From positions 118,214 through 182,213 of the forward strand of contig QPMI01000178.1 in NCBI GenBank assembly GCA_004431415.1: 64,000 bases of DNA, given 5' to 3'. This DNA comes from Cyanophora paradoxa CCMP329. Taxonomy: Eukaryota; Plantae; Glaucophyta. Shown in pieces: positions 6,020 to 64,000 of the stretch (positions are counted from its first letter, which is position 1; every line of letters starts with the position of its first letter). The notes beneath the pieces are model-generated. The model ran no database searches, was not told the origin of the DNA, and worked only from the letters and a program-made list of their open reading frames with translations. The position numbers and the translations under genes are program-made.

Positions 6020-6260
6020 CTGTAGAACTGGTTAATTTAGTACAGGAAAATAATTAGTACTTCGCCAAAACTGCCACTTTATATTAGCAGCTGGTAAAAC
6101 TTTAGTAGGCCAAGGTCAGTCTTCGCAGGGCGTTTGTATGGCGGAGGCGGGGCTACCACTACAAATTCTCGGCTTTAGCAGGCGAGAAATATTTAGTAGA
6201 TCGCCCAAAAACTTTTGGTACTATAAATATGCAGCCCACTAAATATTTCTAGCTCTCCAG
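6020..6260. mobile_element. Degenerate MITE, CTG...CAG ends, TA target
   Basis: Imperfect TIR: CTGTAGAACTGGTTAATTTAGT versus reverse-complemented end CTGGAGAGCTAGAAATATTTAGT. TA flanks both sides, and internal TTTAGTA motifs repeat. Confidence 0.6.
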
Positions 6261-6751
6261 TATTGTACTATACATAGCTAGTGCGGCCATCCAGGCCATG
6301 CATATGGATATAAGGCTGCAGCTGGCCATGAATCCCAGAGGCGAAGAGGCGAACTCGGAAGAGGCGAAGTGGGGGAGTTCGCGGCCGCCGGCCGGGCTAT
6401 ATAATTATAACGCGCTCTGCGGAACTTCTGGGGCGTTCCCGTAACTTCCCGAATCCTCTGGATTTAGGCTTCGACTAGTACTTGCAATTGATTGATATCC
6501 ATGGCCAAATTTAAATCTAGAGTCCGTTCATCAGACTCGTGAGTCGTGATTTCGATCTGATTCGATCATCAGAGGATTCAGAGTCCCGCGACTCCAGCCT
6601 AGTAGGCTGCGTTCGAATGCCTATCTTCAGAAGATCTAAAGACTGAGATCGATTTGCGATCGAATTTAGAGCCGCGACAAAGAAGATAGCTAAATCAAGA
6701 GCGCGCGACAGCATACATCGGCCTGCAGCTGGTGAAACATACTCTCCAGAG

Positions 6752-11799: not shown

Positions 11800-12320
11800 T
11801 GCCTCCCGCCGCGCCTCCGCCCCGCCCGGCGAGCCGCGCCGCCGTCCCGCCCGGCGAGCCGCGCCGCCGCCCGCAGGCCTCCGCCCCGCCCGGCGAGCCC
11901 CGCCGCCGCCCGGCGCGCCGCGCGGCCGCCCGCCGCGCCTCCGCCCCGATCGGCGAGCCGCGCCGCCGCCCGCTGCGCCTCCGCCCCGATCGGCGAGCCG
12001 CGCCGCCGCCCGCCGCGCCTCCGCCCCGCCCGGCGAGCCGCGCCGCCGCCCGCCACGCCTCCGCCTTGCCCGGCGAGCCGCGCCGCCGCCCGCCGCGCCT
12101 CCGCCCCGCCCGGCGAGCCGCGCCGCCGGCCGCCGCGCCTCCGCCCCGCCCGGCGAGCCTCGGAGCCGCGCCGCCGCCCGCCGGCCGCCGCGCCTCCGCC
12201 CCGCCCGCGGCCGGCGAGCCCGCTGCCGCCCGCCGCGCCTGCTCCCCGTGCGGCGCGCCGCGCCGCCGCGCGCCCGCAGCGCCTCCGCCCCGCCCGGCGA
12301 CCGCGCCGCCGCCCGCCGTC
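11800..12320. repeat. GC-rich minisatellite, ~40-bp monomer GCCGCGCCTCCGCCCCGCCCGGCGAGCCGCGCCGCCGCCC
   Basis: Monomers start at 11932, 11972, 12012, 12052, 12092 and 12132. Same family as 55830-57810, in the opposite orientation. Confidence 0.9.
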
Positions 12321-36285: not shown

Positions 36286-39200
36286 TTAAGCACGCCCCGC
36301 GAGCAGAAGAGAGACGGCCGCTGCGAGAAGGACGAGCATAATCTGGGGTCCGGTGCTGTGTGCCGCCGACATTCCAGGCCAGTAAGGCACGCTGGAGCCG
36401 GCTCCGCCGACATTGGCGTTCGTAGTGGTCACAGGGAGCGTCGACATCAGCGAGAACTGTCGCGGGGCGAACACGGTCACGATTTTAGATCTAGGCTAGG
36501 AAATCGCAGTTTAGCATTTCGCACCGGGGTGAGGTGGTTGCAGGTGGCGGTGTAGGCGCCGGCGGCGGCGGTGGCGGCGGAGCAGACCTCCCAGGCCTTG
36601 CTGGTGGTGTTGAAGAAGACGAGCGAGACGGCCTGGCCCGCCGCGATCGTCACGCCGCTCGCGACGGGGATCGTGAAGCCGACCCCCGAGCCGAACTCGC
36701 TGCTCAGCTGCTTCGCCCTGCCGGCGTCGTCGAGGCCCGTCGCCGTGACGTCGAGGATCGGCGCGACGAGGCGGAAGCCCGCCGGCGGCGCGGGGAAGGA
36801 CGACGCGTTCGCGTACACGCGCACGAGGGCCTGTTAAAAATCGGAAGCTAAGGAGTCGAAACGGAACGGCGCAATCTGAACGATCGCGAAATTGTTAATC
36901 CGCACCTGGAAGTTCTTGCCGCCCCAAGCGTTGGTGGGGAAGGTGATCTGTCGGGCAGGACGTATGCACGAAGCGCGCGAGTTTCAAGCAAAAGAATCAC
37001 GCACCACCGCCCCCGGAGCGTCCGAAATGCCGCCGACGGTGACCCGGGGGCCGGCCGAGGGGCACGCCTGCACACCGAACCGCGAATTAGAATTAATCCG
37101 TATATTGTTCATGATCGATATCAAGACGAGCGCTAGCAAATGACGCGAACCTTGAAGCCCCAGGGGTCGAACTCGGTGGCGCGCGTCGCCTGCGTGTCGC
37201 ACGGCGTGTCGGGGCTGCTCAGCGAGATCTGTCGAGGATTGCATTCAGTCTTCTGGTATCGGCCATGCTCAACGCTGGCCAGCTTGGGGTCACCTGGGCG
37301 GCCACTTGGGTGAGGGCCGTCTGCGTCTCGGCGCGGATGGAAGCGCCGGCCGTCGAGGTGGCGGGGATCGCGGACAGCAGCCCCGAGAGGCTCGTCTGCA
37401 GGCTCTGCGCGTCCCCTCGCGCTCAGCCGACAAGTTCAATTCCTCATAGACGGACATATCATATTGCATCGACACCCCTCACCTTCGCGTCGATGCCGGC
37501 CGTGGTGGCGAGGTTCTGCAGTTTTCGTCATCAGTGGAGCGGGCTATATATAATTGCTTGCGGTCATATTTAAAGCTCTCGCACAGGGTTGGCCTTGATG
37601 ACGTTCATGAGCAGCGTGGCGCCCTGGACGGCCGTGGCTTCCGAGACCGCGCCGGTCTTGGCGGCGACGGGCGCGACCGACGAGAAGAACGTGACCAGGG
37701 CCCCCGCGTTCTGCGATGGAGGACGAGGCACGAATTTAGACCTTGCGAAACACGTCGAAATTTTGAAGGACATCGATGCTGTGTACCGCGGTGTTGGTGA
37801 GATCGACGCCCGACTTGGTTGCCTCCGTCGTCACAGCCTGTGATCGTATTGATCGCATCATCAGCGGCGGCTAATTGCGATGCTCTCAGAACAGCGCCCA
37901 CCGTCATGACGTTCGAGATAACGGTCGAGAACGACGCGAGGAGGCTGTCGATCGCGCCGAGCGCCGCGCGGCGAAGGCGGCGGAGCTGGATGCCGGTCGC
38001 CTTGCTGTAGCGGTCCTTGAGGGTGCCGACGAGCGCCAGGATCTTGTTCATCTTCGTCGCGAAGTCGTCGCCGCTCTGCGCTCGCGGGCGCGGGAGGGAT
38101 TCAGAGGCCGGATCCGGATCTCACACGAAAGGAATTCAGGCGCGCACGTTCAGGATCGCGGTGACCTCCTTGTTCACGGCGTCCACCGCTGCCTGCCGCG
38201 AGCCGTTTAGTTATATAATTGTTTGAAGAGCGAGCGTGCGCGGGGCGCGGATCCGGACGTTGAAGTCGGTGACGGCGTTGCCGGTGGCGGGGACGAGGGC
38301 CTTGACCTCGACCGCGGCGGCGATCGCGAAGGCCGTCGCCCGCCCCGCGCTGTCCTCCACCGCCACCCTCAGCTTCGCCGTCCGCGTCGCCCCGCTCTGC
38401 GCACGCGCCAAGTCAGCGAACAAGTGTATACGTATACACACTCAAATATAAAGGCTTGGATGGAGCCCACGTCGGGGAAGAAGAAGACAATGGTCTCGGA
38501 GAGGACGTCGAGGGCGAGGGGCGCCGCCGCGAGGTCCGACGTGACCGTGTACCTCAGCGGGGTCGAGGCCGACTGCCACCCCGAGCACGTCACCTGAGCC
38601 CCACGCCCTCGCGTCAGCCGGATTTCCAGCACTAGTCGGCGTCTTGGGGGACGGTCCAGTCGACGTGGCGCACCGTAACCTTCTCCACGCCCGCCTGAAC
38701 AGAGAGAGGGGAGACGCTACACGTGCCTCCGGAAGGAGCCGCGTCTGCATTCCGGATTGCGTTAGCTGATTGGCATACACAATATTAATGATCACGTCCA
38801 CAAACACCGCGCACTGGCCAAGGCGCCAGGAGTCGGAGTTGCGAATGTAATTACAGCTGGCAGCGCTGTCGGGGCCCTGGATGCGAAACGTACAAATTCA
38901 GGATTAAACGGTTGCACTCGATAAGCAGTTGAGCCAGTGCGCACGCTTGCGGTACTGTGGCTAGAGCAGTCTGCAGGGCCGAATTTAAAAACAGAGCGTA
39001 AACAAGGAAGCTAGATCTAGATGGCCGAAAGGGGGCCGAAATAAATAGCATTAAGCAGCTACGCACTGGGGTTGGAGAGTTCGGCGATGAATCGGCAACG
39101 ATCGCGGGCGTCGCGATCGGCGATGGTGACGGGGATGGAGTCTCTGTCGGAGACGGCGATGGGGATGGCCTGCGCGTAATCAAAAAGATCGATTCGAAAC

Positions 39201-40415
39201 CCTTCCTTGTATGGCAAAAACCAACCCTCCCAACATTTATTATATAATTTACCCCACCCGGTTGTTGCGAGGGGTTGGTGCTATAGGGGCTGGAAAACTT
39301 CCATGTGCGCACGTGGCAAATAATCAATATTTGTTTGTGTGGCATATTATCAAAGGCACCCTTAAGCATAAATTCCACGTGGCGTTGCGCACGAGGGGCT
39401 CGGGCTCGGCGAAGGGGTGGGATAGCAGATGCTCTCAACAACATCCTCGTAGCGCCGGGCGGCGCACTCCATCGTCACGGTGCCCACTCGCGTAGCGTCT
39501 CGCTTGAGCTTCGACGAATCCGCTAAGGTGCTTGATCCCTAGAAGATTGATCAATTAAAATGCTCAGCGAATTCAACAGCAGAAAGGTGGCAGCCCGAGG
39601 CTGAAGCTTAACCCCGTCGTTCACAGGATCGGGGCTAAGTTCCATACGAATTTGAAAGAGAATCAATCGAATCGCACCGAGGGTTCGTCAAACTTGTACC
39701 ACATCGCCAGAGGGTGCTTCTTGTACATCGCGCAGCTGATGCCGTTGTTGTAGAGCTCGGTAACGTCAGCCTCCGAGAGAGAAGCGTTCCAGATTCGAAA
39801 CCTGATTAAGACCCATGGCCAGTGTCATTGAAAGAACTGTGATGCAATCACGATCTAGCGATCGTCTCACTCAGCGATGGTAAGATCGTCGGCTCCCGCC
39901 ATATGGTAATAATCGCTGACGATCTGCGCGTCCTGAATCAATCACGATCAATTTCTCAACCGGGGAAAGAAGCACCCAATTTGCGCGGCCGAAAACGTTG
40001 AACGCGCGATCGAACGACCCGATAGGCTCCGCTCCGTACCTGTCCGAGCCCTGCAGAGCAATTGCAATAACACATACAGGGTCGCTTTAGTAATTATAAT
40101 GTCACAGCGGCCGCGAACGTCGGCATTGCTTACCTGGTACCAGATGCCACCGACAGGGCTTTTTACTGGGTTCACGTTCGTATCGGGGGTGCAGGCGTCG
40201 TACTCGGCAGACGCGGTATTCGGGTCGCATGGGGCCCTCTTGGTGGCGTTTACGTATGTTGTGACAGGGGCCGCGCGGCCTGCGGTGTCGCCGTAGATCG
40301 TATTACCGCTACCATCGTCCTTTGGTGTTGTTCCGTCCGTTTCGTATTGGACCATATACGCCGTCGCGTCTTGGGTCGCCCCGATCGCGACTGCGATGTG
40401 GACCCATTGCCCCAC
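36286..40415 (-). pseudogene. Paralogue of the 6752-11090 surface protein with a LamG-like N-terminal domain; 5'-truncated by the viral insert
   Basis: 38700->36480 exons are nearly identical to 8630->10940 (REJ, GPS CNHLTP|FSL). GPI-like tail ..MLVLLAAAVSLLLAGRA*. LamG-like VGQWVHIAVAIG and FRIWNASLSEADVTELY. No signal-peptide exon: foreign DNA starts at 40419. Confidence 0.75.
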
Positions 40416-40418
40416 CTG

Positions 40419-40711
40419 ACACATAGAGAAACGCGGCGTTTAAACCCTCGGCTAATCTTAATTGATCTTGTTAATATCTCTCGTATATTTTATATCAATC
40501 AATCGATAATCTGTGTGAAATCTATCAAATTATTAAATATTTTGATTTTTGTGTATTTCATTTATAATTTATTGATGTTCTATGGTAAATTTATCTTAAT
40601 TTCGATTTGTCTTACTTAAATCAATCGTGAATTTGTATAAGTTTCCGAATAATATAACTGGATCTTAATTAGATCTTGCCTCCGGTTTAAACGCCGCGTT
40701 TCTCTATGTGT
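40419..40711. repeat. Imperfect ~293-nt palindrome (opened hairpin terminus) with perfect 28-bp outer arms
   Basis: ACACATAGAGAAACGCGGCGTTTAAACC (40419-40446) is the reverse complement of 40684-40711. The AT-rich interior pairs in short blocks. Confidence 0.9.
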
Positions 40712-40830
40712 GATTTTAACGCAATAAACGCGATTAATATGCAAATTCGATATAATCTCGATTGAAGGAACATAATTTTTGTGATATAATCACGAATGAA
40801 GTAGTCCACCGCCCATTCTATTGTAAAACG

Positions 40831-41195
40831 CAAAAATTCACACAGAGTTGCATTACGTCCAATTAAACAATCGATGAGATTCCGGGAAACAAATTCACAC
40901 AGAGTTGCATTATGTCCAATTAAACAATCGATGAGATTGCGGGAAACAAAAATGACCCCAGAGTTGCATTATGTCCAATTAAACAATCGATGAGATTTCG
41001 GGAAACAAAAATGACCCCAGAGTTGCATTACGTCCAATTAAACAATCGATAAGATTCCTGTTAAATTTCTACTGTATCAAAAATGACCCCAGAGTTGCAT
41101 TATGTCCAATTAAACAATCGATAAGATTGGATTCTGTTTTTTACTGTATCAAAATTGTGTTTCAAGTGTAACATGTCCAATTAAACAGTCGATAA
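40831..41195. repeat. Subterminal tandem repeats, 39-bp core CAGAGTTGCATTA(C/T)GTCCAATTAAACAATCGAT(G/A)AGATT, 5 copies plus 1 degenerate
   Basis: Cores start at 40843, 40900, 40959, 41018 and 41090 (periods 57, 59, 59, 72), with a partial copy at ~41172. Confidence 0.95.
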
Positions 41196-41200
41196 TCAAT

Positions 41201-41478
41201 GTGTAACAGGTGAATCCCAAGGTGTAACGGGTGTAACAGGTAAATCCCAAAGTTTTGGATTTTTCATCTCCTATGAGGAAAGTTTGGGAAACACCTGTTA
41301 CACCTGTTACATGACACTATAATCAATGTAAGGAATCGAATATATTAATGCTTTGTTTGATAGATGTAACAGGTGAATCCCAAGGTGTAACAGGTGTAAC
41401 AGGTAAATCCCAAAGTTTTGGGTTTTTGGCCTCCCTAGGAGCGAAGTTTGGGATTTACCTGTTACACCTGTTACACCT
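41201..41478. repeat. Two iteron-containing inverted repeats (GGTGTAACA/TGTTACACC); putative origin or protein-binding array
   Basis: Copy 2 has perfect 32-bp arms at 41383-41414 and 41447-41478 around a 32-nt loop. Copy 1 (41201-41311) is imperfect. Confidence 0.85.
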
Positions 41479-41526
41479 GACGATATTCAATAAGACATGT
41501 TATATTTCTTCAAAATCTCAGTGTGA

Positions 41527-41925
41527 TTAACTCGGAAATCGCGCTGCTATCTGCTTCTCCGCTTTCTCCAACCCTGAAAAGATCTCTGTTATTCTCTCAT
41601 CTATCAATTTAGATATTACGGAGGTCTTACTTTGCGCTTCGGTTCCGCAAGTGAATACATCAATCGCTAACATTCCTTGGTCAGAGTAACAATGAGCGGT
41701 GCAATGGCTCTCATCAAGAAGTAATACCATCGCAAAACCCGGTGGCGAAACACCACCATCGAAAATCTCGCAATGCTTGTGAACAACTCGGATACCTTGC
41801 TCTTGTATAATAGATTGTAAAAATTGCATTAACCACGTTGTTGTGGTCTCCAAGTTTTCCAATCCCACCATGAATGGATGATTGAACTTGTAATCTAACA
41901 TTACATGGGAACCGCGATGATTCAT
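41527..41925 (-). CDS. speD: S-adenosylmethionine decarboxylase proenzyme (pyruvoyl-dependent, short prokaryotic-type SpeD)
   Basis: 132 aa with GSHVMLD, the LLDE|SH autocleavage motif and AIDVFTCG. Confidence 0.9.
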   Translation of the reverse strand: MNHRGSHVMLDYKFNHPFMVGLENLETTTTWLMQFLQSIIQEQGIRVVHKHCEIFDGGVSPPGFAMVLLLDESHCTAHCYSDQGMLAIDVFTCGTEAQSKTSVISKLIDERITEIFSGLEKAEKQIAARFPS

Positions 41926-41965
41926 TTATGAATTATATAGAAAAATAAAAAACGAAATTGGTAGG

Positions 41966-42115
41966 ATGCGAACCATCTTAGCGAAAGTATTTCCGTATGA
42001 GTTGGTCGATATCATAATGCTCCATTATCATAAGACATGTCCGAATTGCTTTGATACTTGCATAATAACCAAAGGTAAATGCGGAAAGATGCTCATTTCT
42101 CTTTCGAAACTCTAA
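41966..42115 (+). CDS. Small 49-aa Cys-rich ORF with an F-box-like N-terminus (below the ORF-track cutoff)
   Basis: MRTILAKVFPYELVDIIMLHYHKTCPNCFDTCIITKGKCGKMLISLSKL*. It fills the intergenic gap, has an A-rich upstream region, and its stop overlaps the convergent stop at 42112-42114. Confidence 0.45.
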   Translation: MRTILAKVFPYELVDIIMLHYHKTCPNCFDTCIITKGKCGKMLISLSKL

Positions 42116-42384
42116 TCAAAATATAACATAATCGGTTTCTCTTCTATTACGATTCCCCATGTAGTCTTTTTTCTGTATGCATGAGAGTGTTTCTTAGAAC
42201 ACTGTCTACATCCTGACCCCTTTATATGGTTAAATCCATAAGTCTGAAAGACTTTATTACATTGCAGGCATCTCACAGATACCTTCTCTTGCGCCTTTTT
42301 ATAGACAGTTTCGGTGTAATCAAACTTATCAAGTCCATGAACCATTATCGCAGACTCAATAAATCTCCTTGTTTTTTCATCCAT
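42112..42384 (-). CDS. Zn-ribbon protein (DUF723-like module found in viral/phage nuclease-associated proteins)
   Basis: FIESAIMVHGLDKFDYTETVYKKAQEKVSVRCLQCNKVF....NHIKGSGCRQC. Confidence 0.75.
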   Translation of the reverse strand: MDEKTRRFIESAIMVHGLDKFDYTETVYKKAQEKVSVRCLQCNKVFQTYGFNHIKGSGCRQCSKKHSHAYRKKTTWGIVIEEKPIMLYFD

Positions 42385-42405
42385 TCCTCTATATATACCG
42401 TAGAT

Positions 42406-43251
42406 TTATGGTAGCGGATCGCTACCGCCGATGGGATTATAGAGATTTGTGGTTAGATATTGACCATAGCGGTTTCCTCTTGCGATTGCATCGTTTCTTT
42501 CGGCATACATAATAACCGTGAATGTTCCTTGTTGTGTTGCCCTAATTATATATTCATCATCTTGCGTATCCAAAAGAGGCAATGAATGGAAAGCAAGACC
42601 AAAATTATCGACGGGGACTACTTGAACTGTAATACGTGGTCTTGCTCCATCGGTTCTCCTACATAATGCATAAATATCCGCAGGTAGCTTTTCGGTATAT
42701 CTGTAATGGTTTCCCAGCGGTTCTATTATGTCAATTACGGCAGTTTGCAGGTTTATTATAATCGTGTTTATTTTAATAATGTAAGGTTCATTCATACCCG
42801 GGCAATACGTTCTAATTCTCGTGTTTTCATCATCAGGATTGGGTTGGTCATTTACGATTAGAGGCGCTCCAATGATACCACCAACTCTTAGTCCGTCCCC
42901 AATATAAGCGCCTCCGGATCTACATTTAATTGCGCCCCTTCTTGCTTCGTAAGCAAAGTTGGTAACCTTATTATCATCATTGTAACTGTCGGGATCTCCA
43001 TAATGAGCGTTGAAGTTCGCATTTGTTACAAGAAGTCTCGTTGTTTTCACCACTCCACTGTTGGTGTCACATCGCAACTCTCTCAGTCTCAGCATATGAG
43101 TATCACCGAAGGTATTGAGAGTTGGTGCGATTTCTGTGGATTCGAGACCATCGATATTATCGATAATAGCATGCTGTAATACGTGGTTTGCGGGCGCAGC
43201 TAACGATAGTTGCGCAGTTAAGATGCGTTCAGGTGGTGCAGGTGCAGCCAT
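42406..43251 (-). CDS. Putative virion fibre-associated protein, paralogue A (281 aa)
   Basis: Shares ELR.D.NSGVVKTT.LLVTNANF, SGGA.IG.G.RV.G, LP..IY..CR and I.Y..RND with its neighbour. Confidence 0.6.
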   Translation of the reverse strand: MAAPAPPERILTAQLSLAAPANHVLQHAIIDNIDGLESTEIAPTLNTFGDTHMLRLRELRCDTNSGVVKTTRLLVTNANFNAHYGDPDSYNDDNKVTNFAYEARRGAIKCRSGGAYIGDGLRVGGIIGAPLIVNDQPNPDDENTRIRTYCPGMNEPYIIKINTIIINLQTAVIDIIEPLGNHYRYTEKLPADIYALCRRTDGARPRITVQVVPVDNFGLAFHSLPLLDTQDDEYIIRATQQGTFTVIMYAERNDAIARGNRYGQYLTTNLYNPIGGSDPLP

Positions 43252-43270
43252 TTAATATATCGAAACATAA

Positions 43271-44116
43271 TTATGGGACGGGATCTTCGGGGTATGGTTC
43301 ATTATAGAAATTCGATAGTTGAGCATCGGGATTTATGCAGTTAGCAACAGCCCATGCCGCCTCATCATTACGATATCCATAAATCATAATATCATAACCT
43401 CCAACCTCAGATGCCCAAAAATCAAAAGTGTTGGGTTGTGTTGCAGGATTTCTTATAACCCATCCACGCCCTCCATGACCTACCGCTTGAACAATGAATG
43501 TATATCCTTCTACACCTCCATTCTGAGAGCGACACATGGAGTAAATCGCTTTCGGTAAAAGTTGATCAGCCATTTTCCAAGGTCCGTCAATACCTTGGGG
43601 TTGGGTAGCATCATTTATATTTACATTTGCTCGTATGATAGCAAAAGCATATGGGGAATCTCCACATGGAAGAAACATACGCATTCGTTGGGGATTATCT
43701 GCATGTTCAGGTAAGGTGTCCGGAATATCGTTAAACGCAGCAGAAGAGCCAAGCATTCCGGATACTCGGCATCCACCACCAATGACAGCGCCTCCTGATC
43801 GGATAACGGCGGCGGCTCGCGTATTGTCGAATTGGAATGCTTTGATATCTACACCATACGCATCGGGTTCTCCGTTTGCTGATTGAAAATTCGCATTTGT
43901 AACCAATAATTGAGTTGTTTTTACCACACCCGAATTCTTATCGGCTCGTAGTTCTTTTACGCGAATCACACTGTTTTTATCGAACGCATTTCCTGAGTTT
44001 GCGCGTTCTGTTGATTCCATACCACGAATCTCATCGGATACTTCATGTTGTCTGAAATGAATTGCGGGCGCACCCAATGCGTAAACCGGTAATTGGACTC
44101 GGTTGTATTCACCCAT
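43271..44116 (-). CDS. Putative virion fibre-associated protein, paralogue B (281 aa)
   Basis: Tandem paralogue of 42406-43251 with the same length and the same motifs. Confidence 0.6.
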   Translation of the reverse strand: MGEYNRVQLPVYALGAPAIHFRQHEVSDEIRGMESTERANSGNAFDKNSVIRVKELRADKNSGVVKTTQLLVTNANFQSANGEPDAYGVDIKAFQFDNTRAAAVIRSGGAVIGGGCRVSGMLGSSAAFNDIPDTLPEHADNPQRMRMFLPCGDSPYAFAIIRANVNINDATQPQGIDGPWKMADQLLPKAIYSMCRSQNGGVEGYTFIVQAVGHGGRGWVIRNPATQPNTFDFWASEVGGYDIMIYGYRNDEAAWAVANCINPDAQLSNFYNEPYPEDPVP

Positions 44117-44165
44117 TGCTTCTTTTACTAAGAAGATTAGAAAAATAAAGCGATCTGTGAGTTAA

Positions 44166-47100
44166 TTATGGTATACCATGACATGTCCAATGGATAGTGC
44201 ATGTGATACTTCGACTTTCAGATAGAGTAGGGGATGCTATGAATGTCACATAGATTGTTGTGTAGTTAGCTGTGGAGTTTGAGATTCCAATTCTAAAATC
44301 TACATCCCCTGGGTTTGTTGCAGGAGTTCCTTGAAGTGTGGCATTTACAACAGGTGTCTGAGTGTAAAAAGGTGGGTCCCAATATAAAACATATGCATGC
44401 TGTGTTGTTTGACCCGCGCTTATAACACCACTTGTGGCTTGATATTTTCCTGATTTGAAACGTCTTTCTATATCATACCAAGATGGAACTTGGCTGATTG
44501 TGTTTGTGGTTCCTGCATTCATCGCATAAAATGCTCTTGCATAAGCATTTCCACGACAGAGCAGTGTTTTATCATAAAAGTTTGCGGAATTGTGGAAGAA
44601 CCATGTTTCTTGGTTTGTGGGTGATGCAGGAGTTACTATTGAACCCGATCCTACATACATAGTATTATTTGCTGTGATCGTATTGGCTGTGAATGGATCA
44701 AAAGAAGGCAAATCTGAGATTTCTGATTTAGTGTGAGTATGGGCAAAATCTGTAATATTTGCCTTTGTGTGAGTATGTGCAAAATCTGTGATATCTGCTT
44801 TGCTGTGTGAGTGAGGACCGACAGATGTTGAAGCTGTTGGTTTTCCGAAGATATTATCCCAATGACAGTAACCACTGTGTGAAGTTACAGCAGGGTTTTT
44901 GCTCCATCCAACAGCAATTGGACCGGGTAAATAAATTCTTCCTTTCTGTCCATGAACACCAACTTTGGTTAGTCCTTCACAATTTATTCCAACATACTGT
45001 TTGAATTCCTTTGATGGGTCGATTGCAGTAGAATAGGCATTTACTCGTAAATATGTATACACAGTTGTTGGAGGATAAATTCCCACCACATCAAAGTATC
45101 TACAATTGTAATGACAAGCATAATAGATATAACAAGATTTCATTCCTGTTGGGACATTCCAATACATTTTACAGCTACTACAATCTTCATCAGAAGCAGC
45201 CCATGTGTTCGCCCAAGTATTTGTGTCCCCTGTCAATATTCCTCCGTTGTAATTTCTCCAATCACCTGTGCGATCTGTGGAAATAATACTTGTAGCGTCA
45301 AAATTTGTGGGCGCTGTGTATGTTGGCTTGTTAATTAAATCATCATAATTTCCGGTTGTCGCAACAGTTGCAAATGTTGGTTTGTCTGTAATATCATTCC
45401 ATAAATGAGTGTGAGCTGTTGCCGGAAATGTTAATGGTTTTTCTGTTATACTACTCCAAGGGTGTGTATGAGCATCGGGCGGAAACAGCAAAGGTTTATT
45501 TGTAATACCTATCCAATCATGAGTATGAGCAGCAGGTGCAAATGTTAATGGTTTGTCTGTGATGTCCGCCCATAAATGAGAGTGAGCAGCAGGAGCAAAT
45601 GTTAACGGTTTGTCTGTGATGTCCGCCATAAATGAGTGTGGGCAAATCAGTAATTTGAGACTTTGTGTGAGTGTGAGTAGTAGGAGTGAACGCTAACGGT
45701 TTGTCTGTGATGTCCGCCCATAAATGATTGTGGGCGAAGTCTGTTATTTGAGACTTTGTGTGAGTGTGAGCATCAGGAGCAAAGGTTAATGGTTTACCTG
45801 TAATGGTTGTCCATGCATGAGAATGAGCATCAGGAGCAAAGGTTAATGGTTTATCGGTGATGTCGTTCCATAAATGAGAATGGGCAGCAGGAGCAAAGGT
45901 TAACGGTTTGTCTGTGATGTCATTCCATAAATGAGAATGGGAAAAGTCTGATATTTGGTCTTTTGTGTGAGTATGAACATCAGGAGCAAACGTTAACGGT
46001 TTGTCTGTGATATTTGACCACGCAGGTGTGTGGTTCTGTATCCAACCTTGAACCACATTTGATGTGGTATAGTTTGGAATGCTTGCATTTGAAGAAACGA
46101 TTAAATTTCTAATATGAACATTTTCAGCAGAAATGCGTAGATTATCAGGAATAACGATTGTTTGCTTTTTTGGAAAGCCAAAATAATCTTGCATATAATA
46201 TCTCACTTTTTGCCTTTCATCAAATGTCAATGCTCTGTTGAATATAATATATTCCCCTACTGCCGTAATGAAATAGGCAACACCCATCCTACTAAAAGTG
46301 GAAGGTGGAAGATAATCCACTTCTGTAATGACTGTGCCTAAATCTTGTCCGTTAAATCCGAAAGTGCAGACATTTGAAGAAACTGTAAAGTCCCAATGAT
46401 TCGGCGACAACTCAGAATACGATGTGGGATAATTTAAGTGTGCTGCTGGGTAAGTCACACCATTGCTTGTATAAGAATGTATACCCATACTGCTACCTGT
46501 TGTCCCAAAGGATACTTTATTAGTTCCATCTGGTGAACTAAAATTTAAGAGATCTACCCACGGTTCCCAAAATCTATAAGAACCTGCAAAGAAGATGGTG
46601 ATACCTTTTGACCAATCCACAGTTACGGGATACGGCATTCCAAATTCCCGGCTTGTATATGAATAAGTAGGTTGTTGGGCAATGTTTCGGTTATTGTAAT
46701 CAGATCTCAATTGAGTTATTGTGTTGTATCCTGACCATGGAAGGTTACCCCGGAAATAAAGGGAATTGCCGTAGTTGCTCTATTTGCAATAAAGGCGTGA
46801 CTGATGTTTATGCCGACAGGGACAACATCTAATCTTATTGTTAAGAGGCAATCTGGTATGGCAAAAGCGGGGTCTGTATTAGAAGTAACAGGATAATAGG
46901 GTGCGTCATAGTATACATCAATGTTTGTATTTTTGTCTCCAATTTGAATTTTTCCTATAACATTCAAGTTGGATGAAATCGTAAGATTTGAGGAAATTGT
47001 TCCTCCTGTGAGAGGCAAGTAATCATGAGTGTGCGCAGAAGGGGCAAACGTTGATGGTTTGTCTGTGATGTCATTCCATAAATGAGTGTGGGCAAAGTCT

Positions 47101-50100
47101 GTTATCTCTGACTTTGTATGAGAATGGGCGAAATCTGTAATTTGAGACTTTGTGTGAGTGTGCGCAGAAGGAGTAAACGTGAGCGGTTTGTCTGTGAGAT
47201 CTGCCCATAAATGGGTGTGTGCAAAATCTGTAATCTCTGACTTTGTGTGAGAATGGGCGAAATCTGTAATTTGAGACTTTGTGTGAGTGTGCGCAGAAGG
47301 AGTAAACGTGAGCGGTTTGTCTGTGAGATCTGCCCATAAATGGGTGTGTGCAAAATCTGTAATCTCTGACTTCGTATGAGAATGGGCAAAATCTGTTATT
47401 TGTGATTTTGTGTGAGTGTGAGTAGTAGGAGTAAATGTTAACGGTTTGTCTGTGAGGTCTGCCCATAAATGAGTGTGGGCAAAATCTGTTATCTCTGACT
47501 TTGTGTGAGAATGGGCGAAATCTGTTATTTGTGATTTTGTGTGAGTGTGAGTAGTAGGAGTAAATGTTAACGGTTTGTCTGTGAGATCTGCCCATAAATG
47601 AGTGTGGGCAAAATCTGTTATCTCTGACTTTGTGTGAGTGTGAATAGCAGGAGTAAACGTTAATGGTTTGTCTGTGATGTCCTCCCATAAATGAGAATGG
47701 GCGAAATCTGTTATTTGTGATTTTGTGTGAGAATGAGTATCAGGCGCAAATGTTAACGGTTTATCTGTGATGTCCGCCCATAAATGAGTATGGGCGAAAT
47801 CTGTTATCTCTGACTTTGTGTGAGAATGAGCATCATGAGCAAAAGTTAATGGTTTATCTGTGATATTTGACCACGCAGGTGTGTGGTTCTGTATCCAACC
47901 TTGAACCACATTTGATGTGGTATAGTTTGGAATGATAGCATTTGAACCAATGTGTAAGTTGTTTAGATAGAGATAATTTGCTGATATTCGCATATTATCA
48001 GGATAGTAAAGAGGTTGAGTTATAGGAAATCCATACATCTGCTGAATATAATACCTCACCTGTTGCTTCTCAATCTCGGTCAAGGCTCTATTGAAAACAA
48101 GTAGTTCTGCAAACTCTCCCCCAATATTTGCAGGTCCTAAATTATTAAATGATGATGGTGGAAGCCAGTTACCAGCAACAGTTCCTAAATGCTTCCCATT
48201 CATTGAATATGATATGCTGTTTGAAGTAATGGTTGTGTCCCAGTATGCAAATTTGTAATTTGCATATTCCTCATAAGGCATATAGACAGTTGGGAGATTA
48301 CTATATGTTGGTGTTCCATATTGCATGTTAACCCCATCAGCAACATGGACATATCTATTCATGCCCCATTTGCAAACAGGTGGGTTCACAAACCAATCTA
48401 TGTGTGTGCCATTCCTTACTTCATGCACATTATAATTAAACACGCCAAACACTGCATGGACCAATGTAAGTGACCTCACACTACACACACTAAATATTGT
48501 TATTCCCTCACTCCAATCCACAGTATCATTTCTGTTTGAAAACAAATGAATGGATGAATTGGGGTTGTCAGATGCTTTCAAAGTAAGTTGGTTATTTAGT
48601 AATGGATTTATTTTATAGTATGATTCCCGTGAGGAACCAGTCATAAAAAATTGTGGAATGAATGGAACAGCCAATGTTGCTCGGTTGGTGATCGTTGTTC
48701 CATGCCCATTTTGTAGATGGGCATAGCCAGATGGTTTTGCAGCTATAAGACAATTCGGAATTGTAAATGCAGGGTCAGTGTTGGATGTGATAGGATAATA
48801 GGGTGTGTCATAAGTCACATCTAAAACCGTCCCATGAGTTCCTAATTGAATGTTGCTTGACACTTTGAGATTACCCGAGATGGTAAGATTACTTGACAGT
48901 GTCCCTCCTGTGAGAGGTAAGTAATCTGATATCCATTCCTGAACCACATTTGATGCTGTTAAAGGTGCTATCCACTCTTGAACCACATTCGATGCAGTTA
49001 ATGGCGCAATCCACTCTTGAACCACATTCGATGCTGTTAAAGGTCCAATCCATTCCTGAACTACATTCGATGCAGTCAATGGTGCTATCCACTCTTGAAC
49101 TACATTCGATGCCGTTAAAGGTGCTGTCCATTCTTGAACCACATTAGAAGAAGTATAATCACTCTCTATGTTATTTATTCTTGTTGCAAGTGCGGCATCC
49201 TCAGTTTGGAGTGCTGTAATTGCCTCTTGTTGTGTATAAATACTCTCTTCCAAGCTATTTGTTTTTTCTTGAAGGCTCATAGTCGATACTGTGCCTGAGG
49301 TTGATGTAGTCATAATAACGTTCGTCGCCAAGAGGGTGCCGGTTACTTTAAACTCATTAGTTCTAACAAGAATCTTGTTGTTATCCAATGGATATGGATT
49401 TAAAGGGTCTTCCGGAAAACCGTATTTTTGCTGTAAATACCATCTAATATTTTGTAGTTCTGTATCTGAAAGGGTTCTACCATAACAAAGGAGTTCGCAT
49501 AAATCGAATTTTGAAACGCTATCACCCACATGTATTTTATTGACATCTTGGCGTGGATATCTTGAATCGGCAGGAACAGATATTGTATCTCTATGTTTTC
49601 CATTTACACCAAAATGAACAGTTGTGCTTGTTACTCGAATATCGAACATTGTCCAAGAATTCCCTTCTGTTGTTGATATTGGAATGCTCACTAAATCGTA
49701 GCCATTCTTATTGACATTCAAATACCCGCTTGTTTTAGTAATCAACCAACTGAGATTGTTTCCATTCACATGTGTTGAGCCGTCGATTCGTAAAACTGTT
49801 TCATTTGGAACGCTTGGTTTAAATCGAATGACAAATGAGACCGTAATTCCGCTGAAAGGAATAGTATCATAAAGAGTAGAAGTTTGATATTGATAATTGA
49901 TGAATGAAAATGTGTTTGTGGTAGCCACCTGGTAGAACTTTTTACTATTTGGACCGAGGAAGCTGAAAGTAACACTGCCGTAACTAACAAGAGTGTTAAC
50001 TACATTAATATAATTCCAAACTGAGCCGCCCCTTGCGTAATTTTTGAGTTCATAAACAAGCGCTCCACTCTTCCAATTATCAGAGTTTGCGTTAAAGTGA

Positions 50101-52304
50101 AGTAGGCAATCTGCTATTTCCCTTGGATTATATGTAGAGAAATCTTGGGATCCTCTCTCGAACTGATTTCCACTTAGGTGTATCTCTTTACCTACACTCA
50201 ATGTATCATTGACTGTCAGATTACCTGTTATGGTTCCACCTGTGAGGGGAAGGTAGTTACCTAACCAAGATTGGACAGTTGAAACTGCCGCCAAAGGAAG
50301 CAAAGCCGTAGCTAATTCGGTTCCATCTATGTAATTCTTGTTTTCTAAATAATCCTCTGTGACCACTCGTGATATTGTTTCGTTGTGTATGTTTTTTGCT
50401 GCTGCTCTCTGATTGATTTCCAAGACCCCTTGCTTATCAACATCATTATAATTGGTTTTAATCCACCCTATCTCACATTGCTTATAATCGTCTCGATCTC
50501 CAATTAAATCATCAGGTAAGAGCCGATCTCGACTAAATATTAACTTTGGTCTTGATCCATCAAGAGCGCTTACATCAGTAACGTTAATTTGGATTGCTGC
50601 ATCTTTGTCTACAAAATTAATTGGATCGGCTGGAAGAGATGGGATAGGTGGTAATGTAACTGTCATCGGGATGTCATCTGGGTAGTAACTTGTTAGATAG
50701 ATGCCCGGTTTATTCTGCATTACTCCAATACCTCCACCTGCTGCAACTAAATTAACTCGTGTAGGTGGTCTGATATATAATTCGCCTTCCATTGTGGTGC
50801 CTGCATTTATTCCGTGACGATTGACGTAATACGTATCTAACATTAATCTTTCCTCTGTGTCTATATTCTTATAGAGACTCACACCATGTAGCCCATCATT
50901 GACAGCATCACCTGCTGATGCGAATGTAGGTTGCTGGTCGATTTGGTTCCAATTGTGTCTATGTGGTGCTGGTGGAAACTCTTCTGGTGCATCGATTTGA
51001 TCCCAAGTGTGTCTATGGTCTTCTGGTGGAAATTCTTCTGGTATTCCATCGATATCCTCCCAATCGTGTCTATGATCCACAGGTGGGAATCTATCAGGTT
51101 TGTTCTCTATTTCGTCCCAATCGTGAGCATGGGGATCAGGTGGATATGTTTGGGGTTTATTTCGGATGTCCTCCCAATCAACAATGAAATCAAATAGATC
51201 GGGTGCGAATCCATCAGGTAAAAGCTGTTCATCATATGGTTCGTAGCGATCGTATGTTATAAGGTTTGGATCGAAACCATCAGGTAACTCATTATCTTCT
51301 TCGAATCGTCGATCTTCAAGAGGTATAACGTTCACATCTGGTGCAAGAAGCTCTTCTGTTGGTGGTTGATACACTGTAAATACTGGTTTGTTTCGAACTT
51401 TTTCCCAACTCACGATATGTTGCCCAAATGCAACGTTCTCTTCTGCTGTATACTCTCTTCCTGGTTGCTTCTTTGGTGTAAGATCTGGCGGATCCCATGG
51501 TAGAGGAAACGGAACCGGAACAGGTCCGTAATGTTCGAATATTTCTCTGATAGTTTTCTCGCTTACAAGTTTCTCACCGTTTGCATACACGTTGCTACCG
51601 TGAATATTTCGCCACTGTCGGGTTCTAATACCAAGGTCTTTGGTATTTGTTTTCAAAGGTAGTAAATGCCTATCCATTTCGACAAGGTCGGGGTGTAAAT
51701 GAATGGCTACTGGTTGACTGGGGCTACTATCGACCGTGATTGAATCTTTTTCTTTGGAAGTATCCTGTGGAAGAGTGAAACCAAACAGTGCATTAGTTTC
51801 TGCATTTTCGACGATGTCCTTCGGATAAATACTGTTGGTGTGGCGAATCTGATTCTCTTCGCCATGTGGGGCTACCTGTAAAATCTGGGGAATTTGTGCA
51901 ATCGTATTTGATCCTTCATTATAAATTCTCAAACCGCTACGATGAACTCCCTTCTCATCCTGGACGTTGAAAACCAAACGTCCGCTATCGAATCGTGTGG
52001 GAATATCGGGATGCGTTCCACTGGTTTTAAGTTTCCGTGGTCTCCTTCTGGTTGCCTTGATCTCTGCAACAGCGTTTTTTTTAACATTGCCCAAACTGAA
52101 AGCAATGCTAACATCTTCTTTATCAGGATCCGTTTGGTTCACCGATAAAGCATGAACCCGGGGATGAGTTTTCGAGGGTTTATCCGCGCTCTGATCAATA
52201 GAAGCCGACCCTTTAATGGTGATATTATCAAAGTTCACATGTTTTGGGTTCCCTTTACCACCACCTGATACTGTCTGTAAATTTGCTGGATAATTGAAAC
52301 TCAT
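44166..52304 (-). CDS. Giant virion fibre/adhesin (~2,713 aa reconstructed): His-x-His tail-fibre repeats, three LamG-like modules, C-terminal H-type-lectin-like domain; split into 3 ORFs by three 1-nt deletions
   Basis: Repeats WADITDKPLTFAPAAHTH and HTKSQITDFAH; YLPLTGGT; LamG-end motifs ELLCYGRTLSDTELQNIRWYLQQKYG, ELLVFNRALTEIEKQQVRYYIQQMYG, EYIIFNRALTFDERQKVRYYMQDYFG. Frameshifts at ~46730, ~45645 and ~45627. Confidence 0.85.
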
Positions 52305-52352
52305 CCTGCTTGCTCTACTTATACAGATTTATTAAATTTAAGATAAGTAAAG

Positions 52353-52820
52353 ATGCCCCTAAAAGTCGTATTATCTTTGTCCGGAGGTGGCGCTCGTGGT
52401 ATCATCATAACAAGATTGCTAAAAGAGATCGAAACAAGAACCGGTAAACGCGTGATCGATCTTGTAGATCTCGTAAGTGGAACATCCACAGGCGGTATTA
52501 TTGCAATCGGTCTCAATGTGAAAAACCCCGAATTTCCAAATGAACCTAAACTAACTGCAACCGACCTTCACGATACTTACCTCTATCATCTCCCTCTGAT
52601 CTTTGCGAATCCACGAAACATCATAGAGAATGCCCTTTTTAATACGAAATACGACGTAACACCATTAGAGACCGCCATTCTCTTTGTGACTGGGGAAGCT
52701 CTCATAAAAGATTCCCTGAAAGACGTGGTGATTACGACGTTCGACACTGTAAGCATGAAACCCATTTTTATAGCAAACGACAACGATTACAAGACCATAC
52801 CAAGTAAGATTGCAGCACGT
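52353..52820 (+). pseudogene. Patatin-like phospholipase, 3'-truncated
   Basis: VLSLSGGGARG and SGTSTGGIIA motifs are present. Similarity stops at KIAAR, before the expected SAAP and DGG motifs; the ORF then runs into a DNA repeat. Confidence 0.85.
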
Positions 52821-52854
52821 TTATATCTGCACTTTTGGAGTATTGCAATACTTG

Positions 52855-53193
52855 GTCGACAGAATCAGTCGATCGACAGAATCAGTCGATCGACTGATTC
52901 TGCGCCAGAATCGGTCGACCGATTCTGTCGAATTTTATCGACTGACTCTGCGACAGAATCGGTCGACAAAATCAGTCGATCGACCAACTCTGTCGATCGA
53001 CTGATTCTGCACCAGAATCGGTCGACCGATTCTGTCGAATTTTATCGACTGACTCTGCGACAGAATCGGTCGACAAAATCAGTCGATCGACCAACTCTGT
53101 CGATCGACTGATTCTGCGCCAGAATCGGTCGACCGATTCTGTCGAATTTTATCGACAGACTCTGCGACAGAATCGGTCGACAAAATCTGTCGA
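52855..53193. repeat. 107-bp tandem repeat (~3 copies) built of TCGA-centred palindromes
   Basis: Units start at 52885, 52992 and 53099. Each contains the 20-bp palindrome AGAATCGGTCGACCGATTCT and GTCGATCGAC. Confidence 0.9.
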
Positions 53194-53935
53194 TACTTGA
53201 TATATTAATATATATTGATATATCGCCAGGTTTGTCGATAAATTGATTAATATTCTTCATATTAAGATTATTGATTTGTATATTATCTTGTATAAATATT
53301 GAGCCAGTACTAGTGGAGGATCTCCGGGGGATCCAGCTGCAGGTCGCATGCACAGGCCTAGGTCAGCTACACTATAGCCTATATAGCTATATATAGGCCC
53401 TGACGGCCCATGACTAGCTATAGGCGGGCCAGAACACATGTACATCTGGCATTGGCTTTTTGCATCTATATAAATTAGTTGATCTGCAGGCCACCTATTT
53501 TCACATATCGTGCGGGCCGCCTAATTCATGATCTGCATGCACACACCTATGCATACATGCTGTCACATCGCAAATATGATCCCTACTCTGGCCTAGCCCT
53601 GCCTAGTCCTGCAAATATAAACCCTACCCTGGCCCCGGATGCAGCCGCACGCGCTCCAGCCCGACGCCGTCCGCTCGCGCGCGGCTTCAATTAGTCGTTC
53701 GTCCCTAGTTGCTAGGCAACAAAGGGCGAGTCAGAAGCTGGAGGATAACGGGTGAAGCGATGCGGCCCGCACCAGGTCGTTCTGCACCTCGCCGCCCTCG
53801 CTGCGCCATGCGCATCGCGGTGAGCGAGAGCTCGAATCGAATGGAAAGAGGCAACGCCGGCACGCAGGCGGCTATGCATGCGCACCTCGGCGAGGAGAGG
53901 AGAGGGAGAGGAGAGCACGAAAGCGGCTCTCCTAG

Positions 53936-55829: not shown

Positions 55830-57810
55830 CGGGCGGCCGAAGGCGCGGCGCGTGGCGGCGCGGCTCGCCGGGCGGGGCAGAGGCGCGGCGGGCGGCCGCA
55901 CGGCTCGCCAGGCGGGCCGGGGGCGCGGCGGGTGGCGTCGGCGGCTCGCCGGGCGGGGCGGAGGCGCGGCAGGCGGCGGAGGCAGCTTGCCGGGCCGGGC
56001 AGAGGCGCGGCGGGCGGCCGCGAGGCTCCGCTGGGCGGGGCGGAGGCGCGGCGGGCGGCGGCGAGGCTCGCCAGGTGGGCCGGGGCGCGGCGGGCGGCGG
56101 CGCGGCTCGCGGAGCGGGATGGATCCTCGCGGGCGGCGGCGAGGCCCGCCGGGCGGGGCAGACGCTCGGCGGGCGGCCGCGCGCCTCGCGGGCCGGGGCG
56201 GAGGCGCGGCGGGCGGCGGTGCGCCTCGCTGGGCGGGGCGGAGGCGTGGCGGGCGGCGGCGGCGGCTCGCGGGGCGGGATGGAGGCGCAGCAAGCGGCGT
56301 CGGCGGCTCGCCGGGCGGGGCGGAGGCGCGGCAGGCGGCGGAGGCAGCTCGCCGGGCCGGGCGGAGGCGCAGCGGGCGGCCGCGAGGCTCCGCTGGGCGG
56401 GGCGGAGGCGCGGCGGGCGGCGGAGGCGGCTCGCGGGGCGGGACGGAGGCGCGGCGGGCGGCGGAGGCGGCTCGCGGGGCGGGACGGAGGCGCGGCGGGC
56501 GGCGGCGGCGGCTCGCGGACCGGGGCAGACGCTCGGCGGGCGGCCGCGCGGCTCGCCTGGCGGGCCGGGGGCGCGGCGGGCGGCGGCGCGGCTCGCCGGG
56601 CGGGCCGGGGGCGCGGCGGGCGGCGGCGCGGCTCGCCGGGCGAGACTGTGGCGCGGCGGGCGGCGGCGAGGCTCGCCAGGTGGGCCGGGGGCGCGGCGGG
56701 CGGCGGCGCGGCTCGCGGAGCGGGATGGATCCTCGCGGGCGGCGGCGAGGCCCGCCGGGCGGGGCAGACGCTCGGCGGGCGGCCGCGCGCCTCGCGGGCC
56801 GGGCGGAGGCGCGGCGGGCGGCGGTGCGCCTCGCTGGGCGGGGCGGAGGCGTGGCGGGCGGCGGCGGCGGCTCGCGGGGCGGGATGGAGGCGCAGCAAGC
56901 GGCGTCGGCGGCTCGCCGGGCGGGCGGAGGCGCGGCAGGCGGCGGAGGCAGCTCGCCGGGCCGGGCGGAGGCGCAGCGGGCGGCCGCGAGGCTCCGCTGG
57001 GCGGGGCGGAGGCGCGGCGGGCGGCGGAGGCGGCTCGCGGGGCGGGACGGAGGCGCGGCGGGCGGCGGAGGCGGCTCGCGGGCGGGACGGAGGCGCGGCG
57101 GGCGGCGGCGCGGCTCGCGGACCGGGGCAGACGCTCGGCGGGCGGCCGCGCGGCTCGCCAGGCGGGCCGGGGGCGCGGCGGGCGGCGGCGCGGCTCGCCG
57201 GGCGGGCCGGGGCGCGGCGGGCGGCGGCGCGGCTCGCCGGGCGAGACTGTGGCGCGGCGGGCGGCCGCGAGGATTGCTGGGCGTGGCGGAGGCGCGGCGG
57301 GTCGCCGCGCGGCTCGCGGAGCGGGATGGATGCTCGCGGGCGGCGGCGAGGCTCGCCGGGCGGGGCAGACGCTCGGCGGGCGGCCGCGCGCCTCGCGGGC
57401 CGGGGCGGAGGCGCGGCGGGCGGCGGCGCAGCTCGCTGGGCGGGGCGGAGGCGTGGCGGGCGGCGGCGGCGGCTCGCGGGGCGGGATGGAGGCGCAGCAG
57501 GCGGCGTCGGCGGCTCGCCGGGCGGGGCCGAGGCGCGGCAGGCGGCGGAGGCAGCTCGCCGGGCCGGGCGGAGGCGGGGCGGGCGGCGCGCGGCTCGCTG
57601 GGCGGCCGGAGGGGCGGCGCGCTGCGGCGCGACTCGCCGGGAGGGCCAGAGGGGCGGCGGGCGGCGGTGCGCAGGCGCGGCGGCCGGCTGCGCGGCTCGC
57701 GGGGCAGGGCGGAGGAGTGGCGGGTGCCGGCGCGGCTCGCGGGGGCGGGGCGGAGGCGCGGCGTGCAGCGGCGCGGCCCGCCGGGCGGGGCGGAGGCGCG
57801 GCGGAGGCTC
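55830..57810. repeat. GC-rich satellite (~35-40-bp monomers) with a ~600-bp higher-order period
   Basis: The marker GGATGGAT(C/G)CTCGCGGG occurs at 56117, 56723 and 57324. The monomer is the reverse complement of the 11800-12320 family. Confidence 0.9.
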
Positions 57811-57871
57811 GTGGGGAAGCCTGCAGATGCTCGCTCTGTACCGTAGTACTCTTGCGTAGATCATCGGATAT

Positions 57872-63800: not shown

Positions 63801-63822
63801 CAGCGCCCCACTGTGTATCTGT
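57872..63822. repeat. ~710-bp tandem array (5 full copies plus a partial; the first is interrupted by the LTR element)
   Basis: GCACCCCGCCCATTTCGAGGGTGGG starts at 57872, 60777, 61475, 62187, 62914 and 63622. Confidence 0.95.
58496..60691 (-). mobile_element. Non-autonomous LTR retrotransposon (Ty3/gypsy-like), 2,196 bp
   Basis: Identical 183-bp LTRs at 58496-58678 and 60509-60691 (TGTT...AACA). The CTCT TSD is confirmed by the empty site GAGGCCTCTTCGGGG in other array units. Minus-strand PPT AGTGAGGGAGA lies next to the left LTR. Decayed gag-like sequence at ~60130-59600; no pol. Confidence 0.9.
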
Positions 63823-64000
63823 GCCTCCATCCCGCCCCGCCTCCATCCCGCCCCGCGAGCCGCCGCCGCCGCCCGCCACGCCTCCGCTCCGCCCAGCGAG
63901 GCGCGCCGCCGCCCGCCGCGCCTCCGCCCGGCCCGCGAGGCGCGCGGCCGCCCGCCGAGCGTCTGCCCGCCCGGCGAGCCTCGCCGCCGCCCGCGAGGAT
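63823..64000. repeat. GC satellite, inverted copy of ~56720-56890 (runs off the window)
   Basis: The reverse complement matches ATCCTCGCGGGCGGCGGCGAGG...GGCGGGATGGAGGC. Confidence 0.85.

Follow-up and report, generated by a model that had tools for sequence, protein, structure and literature searches.

The DNA analysed here is a stretch of 64,000 nucleotides (hereafter the window) from contig QPMI01000178.1 of the glaucophyte Cyanophora paradoxa CCMP329, in which a GC-poor island of 12.4 kb with the features of an integrated virus-like element spans positions 40419–52820. The GC content is 0.38–0.44 per kb between 40 and 53 kb, and 0.5–0.9 in the rest of the window. By segment it is 0.597 at 36500–40418, 0.29 at 40419–40711, 0.36 at 40712–41526 and 0.40 at 41527–52820, which places a sharp shift in composition at 40419. 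From this position inwards the island contains a pair of inverted arms, tandem repeats, TGTAAC palindromes, and genes for a SpeD homologue, a zinc finger, two paralogous proteins, a fibre and a patatin. From the SpeD gene to position 52820, 11,121 of 11,294 bases (98%) are coding when the fibre region is counted as one gene, introns are unnecessary for the island genes, and their third-position GC is 0.27–0.43. The original prediction, made from the letters of this DNA, had reported a sharp switch to AT-rich, intronless and compact genes, in the order hairpin, repeats, palindromes, small genes, fibre genes and patatin. Both statements agree with our results, with the arms, the repeats, the PF02675 and PF01734 domains and the phage-tail (PTR-like) fibre repeats placed accordingly.

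The first gene of the island (41527–41925, reverse strand) encodes a 132-aa homologue of SpeD, the class 1b S-adenosylmethionine decarboxylase (PF02675, phrog_3125). The match to PF02675 had an E-value of 3.2e-12 and 47.2 bits (cut-off 25), and the match to TIGR03330, with 50.2 bits, was under its cut-off of 75.65. The protein contains an ESH motif, which we take to be the site of self-cleavage. No match to it was found among 50,697 phage records, and a scan of viral contigs (IMG/VR) gave two weak loci. According to published work, class 1b SpeD is encoded by Algavirales, and viral SpeD homologues can be arginine or ornithine decarboxylases (PMC9992855). Next to this gene lie a cysteine-rich open reading frame (ORF) of 49 aa without any family match (41966–42115, forward strand) and a gene for a 90-aa treble-clef zinc finger (42112–42384, reverse strand; PF14311 with an E-value of 1.6e-4, below the cut-off; phrog_4605, phrog_681 and phrog_559), which resembles the HNH/endonuclease-protein type, the nuclease domain being absent. 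At the other end of the island, the forward strand of 52353–52820 contains the 5' half of a gene for a patatin-like phospholipase (PF01734, E-value 2.5e-13). This fragment includes the GGGxRG and GTSTG motifs and is cut at codon ~156, ahead of the half with the catalytic Asp. That half, with its ATSAAP/DGG motif, is present in all five patatin homologues available (35–39% identity) and missing from the island patatin. No relative of the patatin was found in the IMG/VR scan.

Two genes located on the reverse strand between the zinc finger and the fibre encode proteins of 281 aa each, protein A (42406–43251), which is likely a virion fibre or spike, and its paralogue protein B (43271–44116). Both proteins are 36% identical. 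A profile search of 1.84 billion proteins with this 281-aa family retrieved five relatives, four of which align over the first ~125 residues only, two of them with a C1q head. Because this N-terminal domain of ~125 aa recurs with different heads, including C1q, its distribution suggests that it may serve to anchor the spikes of the virion. Named relatives of this domain are limited to five near-identical proteins, P0010–P0014, encoded on five contigs of C. paradoxa; these are probably the fibre genes of an endogenous virus family. For protein B, a near-length protein search gave nothing, the viral-contig scan gave no relative and the atlas match was under 0.9. No relatives were obtained either in the IMG/VR scan with alignment A2 or in the metagenome scan with alignment A3. 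Structure models of the 281-aa proteins were poor (pLDDT 33 and 40), too low for a jelly-roll test, and the tail-fibre-like matches returned for them by fold search (TM about 0.2) were given no weight.

The largest part of the island (44166–52304, reverse strand) is occupied by three consecutive ORFs of 1862, 373 and 487 aa in shifted frames, which share duplicated domains. They contain repeats of 13 aa and of the phage-tail (PTR-like) type, as well as a lectin domain of the LamG family that occurs in duplicated copies. The LamG domain matched Laminin_G_3 with an E-value of 2e-4, below the Pfam cut-off (atlas 0.96), and residues 1–700 of the long fibre gave nothing in the near-length protein search. 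The frame breaks lie near 46750–46830 and 45620–45690. At the first of them, the short reads of X1 and X5 assemble into contigs with one extra base; the second falls inside a repeat unit that is one base shorter than the neighbouring units. A tandem array of ~700-bp units elsewhere in the window (57850–63820) shows 1–7 gap events versus 0–2 substitutions per 620 nt between units, and its one-base gaps are a sign of residual long-read error in the assembly. The extra base of the contigs, the short repeat unit and the gaps in the array therefore indicate that 44166–52304 is probably one fibre gene of ~2,700 aa with two one-base assembly indels. Phage-tail-repeat fibre sequence is present where the original prediction placed its fibre genes, although these are probably a single gene.

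The outermost feature of the island is a terminal fold-back unit (40419–40711), in which perfect inverted arms of 28 bp (40419–40446 and 40684–40711) flank an AT-rich degenerate palindrome of 237 nt; mirror symmetry ends after the 28 bp. The complete unit folded far better than shuffled sequences (z −8.2 to −9.2). The fold of the 237-nt spacer was −13.9 kcal/mol versus −11.6 ± 2.3 kcal/mol for the shuffles (z −1.0; 17 of 100 shuffles did as well), and the inner 203 nt of the tip folded at z 0.0. Since the spacer does no better than its shuffles, the strong folding of the unit is due to the 28-bp arms. The two halves of the spacer are nevertheless weakly self-complementary, as a degenerate palindrome (score 69 versus 46.5 ± 6.3; one of 300 shuffles did as well). 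The termini of poxviruses and asfarviruses bear a short AT-rich loop that is mostly base-paired. In contrast, the tip of the island folds back around a loop that is long and loose, so that of the terminal hairpin originally proposed the perfect arms and the folding of the unit stand, but not a stably paired spacer. No second copy of this element end was found within the 64-kb window. A 16-nt pattern from the arm was also found in 118 stretches of metagenomes. As these were absent from the 25 best blastn matches to the island and did not match its proteins, they were set aside as relatives and taken as chance.

Subterminal tandem repeats follow at 40831–41195 (forward strand), consisting of five units of 57–72 bp (40831–41140) plus a sixth 23-nt core at 41173. 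Beyond them, 0.8–1.05 kb inside the element end, two convergent TGTAAC/GTTACA iteron-like palindromes were located (41202–41311 and 41365–41478), each with two or three TGTAAC hexamers opposing two GTTACA hexamers at a period of 9 bp. A scan of IMG/VR viral contigs with an 18-nt motif gave at least 122 stretches, 80 of them with flanks; 27 of these 80 had at least two hexamers per strand nearby, and 16 of the 27 lay outside ORFs of 150 aa. The nearest long ORFs were scanned at 13 loci, namely 12 of the 16 non-ORF loci plus L040. At nine of the 13 loci a gene of the DUF927/Cch, VapE/PriCT-2, DUF3987 or AAA_25 families, which we take to be primase-helicases, ends 117–413 nt from the motif, whereas the remaining four comprise two loci with terminases at 563–1445 nt and two without any family. 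Phage P4 uses similar iterons. Since the motif lies beside primase-helicase-type genes in nine of the 13 loci, by analogy the palindromes are likely the origin for a virus-encoded primase-helicase, the gene of which is missing from this fragment.

The TGTAAC/GTTACA cluster lies just past unrelated helicase-type genes at L011, L019, L023, L029, L031, L039, L040, L055 and L069. The motif-bearing viral contigs differ in GC content, and the motif is likely a widely shared origin motif. With the phage and satellite origins at these loci (L019 left aside) the island shares the non-coding convergent TGTAAC/GTTACA hexamers with a 9-bp period. There the motif sits just downstream of the helicase gene, whereas in the Cyanophora element it sits in the terminal region and the helicase gene is absent.

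The connection of the island to the chromosome was assessed with sequencing runs. Twenty of the 24 runs listed contain the stretch wholly or partly, and 16 contain at least half of its words, all 16 under one organism label; one of them may be the data set from which the window was assembled. No RNA run was listed as carrying the stretch, apart from four rows with a small share of it that are putatively RNA. Short-read contigs from four runs were compared, with a bridging criterion of 31 nt. At the left junction, an unbranched flank contig extends from 39701 to 40444–40447 in all four runs, reaching 26–29 nt into the element, which is below the 31-nt criterion. That the element end is joined to host DNA, as had been predicted, is borne out by this unique host contig. 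No bridging contig for the right junction at 52820 was present among those listed for the four runs. This unbridged junction, the one-base assembly errors and the matches of the fibre repeats and the patatin to phage and bacterial families could speak for a chimeric assembly that includes DNA of a contaminating phage or bacterium. Such an artefact is hardly credible, however, given the entry of the host contig into the element in four of four runs, the single organism label of the 16 runs and the lack of a SpeD match among the 50,697 phage records.

Depth was compared with that of the flank contig (23, 5.1, 68 and 117 in the four runs), a comparison that the original prediction had proposed. 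It uncovered a multi-copy state that the prediction had missed: the island contigs reach 4.0–9.4 times the flank depth in the four runs, excepting 48091–48783. This part of the fibre gene shows 1.8–4.3 times the flank depth, about half that of its neighbours in all four runs, which suggests a domain cassette that is swapped or absent in some copies. A diverged variant of 43121–43897 (111 differences in 777 nt, i.e. ~86% identical) was present at a similar depth, 4.9–10.5 times the flank, in the three runs listing it. In run X1 the tip is a single identical contig of 295 nt (40419–40713) that starts exactly at 40419, with a depth of 249 versus 23 for the flank (10.8 times); in run X2 a contig covers 40417–40747 at a depth of 17.6 versus 5.1 (3.5 times). 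A variant of the inner arm (40630–40715), which keeps TGATT followed by 68 nt of constant AT-rich DNA, reached 140 times the flank depth in X1 and 21 times in X2. This gap between runs exceeds that for the genes (about twofold) and may reflect library bias or free copies. The element family consists of several near-identical copies and many diverged ones with a common, precise end. Such a precise shared end fits enzymatic integration, and the near-identical copies point to recent activity. A single capture event, as had been proposed, is not upheld, in view of the 4–11 times flank depth and the diverged relatives.

The depth data also bear on whether 40419–40711 might be an independent host miniature inverted-repeat transposable element (MITE) lying beside a viral fragment. 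Such an element would account for the perfect terminal arms, for the TGA present on either side of the unit, for its CpG observed/expected ratio of 2.2 versus 0.8 in the island genes and for the arm variant at 140 times the flank depth. It is very improbable, because what follows the inner arm on its right side is DNA of the element, constant and multi-copy, as two variants show (the 40417–40747 contig, and the high-depth variant with TGATT plus 68 nt). In addition, the depth of the tip is near that of the genes, and the window contains no other copy of it.

One important question is what kind of virus the island derives from. Among the eight island ORFs of at least 90 aa included in the family scans (Pfam and phrog), no family of major capsid protein (MCP), penton, packaging ATPase, polymerase, helicase or integrase was found. 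None of the core genes of nucleocytoplasmic large DNA viruses (NCLDV; MCP, PolB, D5, A32, VLTF3 and RNA polymerase) is in the island, the element being truncated, nor was any Rfam family or tRNA found. The element can hence not be called nearly intact, as it had been, with no capsid, packaging, polymerase or integrase family in the eight ORFs and the patatin cut before its ATSAAP/DGG half.

The original prediction took the island for the end of a linear, giant-virus-like genome (Nucleocytoviricota) that terminates in a hairpin and became captured by the chromosome. In poxviruses, asfarviruses and chloroviruses, an AT-rich fold-back is followed by tandem repeats and then by accessory genes. The island resembles these ends in that same layout and has, besides, a very long fibre gene; class 1b SpeD in Algavirales (PMC9992855) and the giant endogenous viral elements described in C. 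paradoxa (PMC12344493) are also compatible with a giant virus. It differs from them in its longer loop, which is not stably paired, in a mirror symmetry confined to 28 bp, in the precise integrated end shared by several identical copies and many diverged ones, and in the lack of any NCLDV core gene. The accessory genes are not specific to Nucleocytoviricota, and no close relative was found among the IMG/VR contigs scanned. The assignment is therefore not maintained, and we regard it as improbable.

We conclude, with a probability of about 0.7, that the island is what a truncation has left of one end of an integrated virus-like element with multiple copies; most likely this element is a Polinton-like virus (PLV) of the glaucophyte type. 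PLVs of 14–40 kb are expanded in protist genomes, and their fibres can reach 3.9k aa, with PTR and Laminin_G_3 domains (PMC12220804). Glaucophyte and cryptophyte PLVs commonly encode SpeD, patatin and PTR/LamG fibres, and patatin fused to discoidin occurs chiefly in rhizarian and glaucophyte ones (PMC12220804). Table S6 of that study lists, for 156 glaucophyte PLVs, AdoMet_dc in 66, lipases in 89, HNH_3 in 40, rve in 85 and a tyrosine recombinase in 0, as well as Pox_A32 in 139, pPolB in 49 and D5_N in 40; AdoMet_dc is limited to four of 19 host groups and 138 of 5,817 elements. The island shows the corresponding PLV traits, as it is integrated, GC-shifted and multi-copy in a protist genome, with an accessory set (SpeD, lipase and PTR/LamG fibre) that is typical but not defining. 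Its likeness to the endogenous PLVs of glaucophytes thus includes SpeD, lipase/patatin, phage-tail-repeat fibres, endonuclease-type genes and many copies per genome, and the relative of the 281-aa domain is found in five Cyanophora copies. The island is however a fragment without a core gene, and it is likened to these elements by gene content and not by sequence.

Several observations weigh against this conclusion. The window contains no defining PLV gene (MCP, penton, ATPase, polymerase, helicase or integrase) and neither a second terminal inverted repeat (TIR) nor a target-site duplication (TSD), and no related locus with context was found in the IMG/VR viral-contig and metagenome scans. 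Giant viruses and bacteria encode SpeD and patatin as well, and giant endogenous elements have been reported in C. paradoxa by best-hit taxonomy (PMC12344493). P0010 is just 22% identical to the island protein, so that it represents a related family and not the same one. Contig depth does not equal copy number, and from run to run it can change by a factor of two or more. The iteron loci were chosen by motif, without a formal control, and are partly redundant (among the nine helicase-type loci, L019 and L023 are 99% identical and three are 59–67% identical). PLV membership is thus inferred from the sequence of a fragment, the capsid, ATPase, integrase, right end and TSD being absent from the window. 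On the capture without an integrase or TSD that had been proposed, a fragment that lacks its right end has no bearing, and rve integrases are listed for 85 of the 156 glaucophyte PLVs.

Another mid-sized integrating DNA virus, either a virophage or an unnamed lineage with an NCLDV-like capsid, could share the accessory genes of PLVs. In the same Table S6, the standard Polinton MCP model was found in just two of the 156 glaucophyte elements and the NCLDV minor-capsid model in 15 (PMC12220804). C. paradoxa has 366 endogenous MCP genes, in two clusters that came from iterative searches (PMC10120064, Table S4), and their best HHpred matches were to the capsids of ascoviruses, iridoviruses and a Pyramimonas virus (PMC10120064). 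Virophages, moreover, likewise have terminal palindromes and LamG genes (bioRxiv 10.64898/2026.07.28.741278). We consider this origin unlikely when set against the Pox_A32 genes (139 of 156), the PLV-type minor capsid (97), the rve integrases (85) and the absence of any virophage MCP (0 of 156), and both PMC12220804 and PMC10120064 class the glaucophyte elements with PLVs. A bolder proposal is that of a distinct mid-sized integrating virus lineage of glaucophyte-like algae, still active, with NCLDV-like capsids, ends closed by long fold-backs and a bacterial-style iteron origin for a primase-helicase; such an end would be intermediate in design between the TIRs of Polintons and the hairpins of giant viruses. 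Continued activity would fit about ten identical ends and the sevenfold variation of the arm variant from one run to another, a possible sign of copies that replicate freely; we put this proposal forward as a tentative possibility of low probability.

A close parallel for the end of the element was found in the integrated elements of Halocafeteria seosinensis, where palindromes are present at the TIR tips of one PLV subtype and four virophage subtypes and are tied to non-pPolB replication; the authors propose hairpin priming as a model and call it untested (bioRxiv 10.64898/2026.07.28.741278). PLV subtype 4 and virophage subtypes 1, 2, 5 and 6 share with the island a palindrome at the tip of an AT-rich integrated element, and fragments and copies interrupted by transposable elements are common among them. 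Their palindromes, proposed to prime replication and linked to non-pPolB genes, are short (52 nt in subtype 5, with gaps of up to 10 nt searched), whereas in the island 237 nt separate the 28-bp arms, and tandem repeats and iterons come next. In the literature searched, which included few subscription papers, neither the ends of glaucophyte elements nor a TGTAAC iteron motif in a PLV were found to be described, and the end design as a whole (28-bp arms around 237 nt, tandem repeats and iterons) is not described there.

On the PLV interpretation, the fold-back tip together with the nearby repeats is likely a replication origin. The parent virus would have possessed a linear, PLV-sized dsDNA genome bounded by TIRs and would have been inserted by an integrase of the rve type. 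Once the element is excised, its end may fold back through the 28-bp arms and be primed or protected in this way, while the iterons 0.8–1.05 kb inside would be the loading site of a primase-helicase that the virus itself encodes. Attachment of the virions to host glycans would fall to the long PTR/LamG fibre and to both 281-aa proteins, the patatin may help in membrane crossing, and SpeD might either supply the polyamine pathway or work as a pyruvoyl decarboxylase of a related kind. At 52820 a repeat insertion or a rearrangement probably truncated this copy, which has lost the sequence beyond patatin codon ~156 and is probably dead and unable to form a virus alone.

The flanks of the island were also characterized. 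On the left, the element is directly adjoined by a host reading frame (39948–40418, reverse strand), which lacks its upstream part at this locus and had no Pfam match, although it presumably contains LamG-like motifs. The downstream part of this intron-rich host gene, at 36517–38842 (reverse strand), has an inverted paralogue of 2.4 kb and 88% identity at 8545–10863 (forward strand). The 5' parts of this pair differ, and the copy at 36.5–40.4 kb is interrupted by the element. On the right, 107-bp tandem repeats rich in TCGA palindromes (52821–53194; CpG observed/expected 2.1) start a repeat-dense region and are probably not part of this virus. The segment 52821–54220, with the 107-bp repeats, a stretch dense in 6-bp palindromes (53300–53700) and 141-bp repeats, has a high summed depth throughout and is possibly the end of a host transposon. 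A 40-bp GC-rich satellite forms three blocks in both orientations (11801–12316, 55830–57800 and 63831–63994). The region 3300–6500, non-coding and with about 50% GC, has many short palindromes and repeats and is perhaps another transposon end.

Endogenous PLVs with this gene set have already been catalogued in bulk, and the discovery of a giant virus does not hold. The locus also serves as a caution, since AT-rich islands of protist genomes with SpeD, patatin and fibres can be PLV fragments and not giant-virus insertions. For the copying of ends in PLVs without a protein-primed polymerase, hairpin priming has been proposed. The end of this island joins a fold-back tip, tandem repeats and a recognisable iteron motif of the primase-helicase type within 1.1 kb of a recently expanded family, which makes the hairpin-priming model testable with defined DNA.

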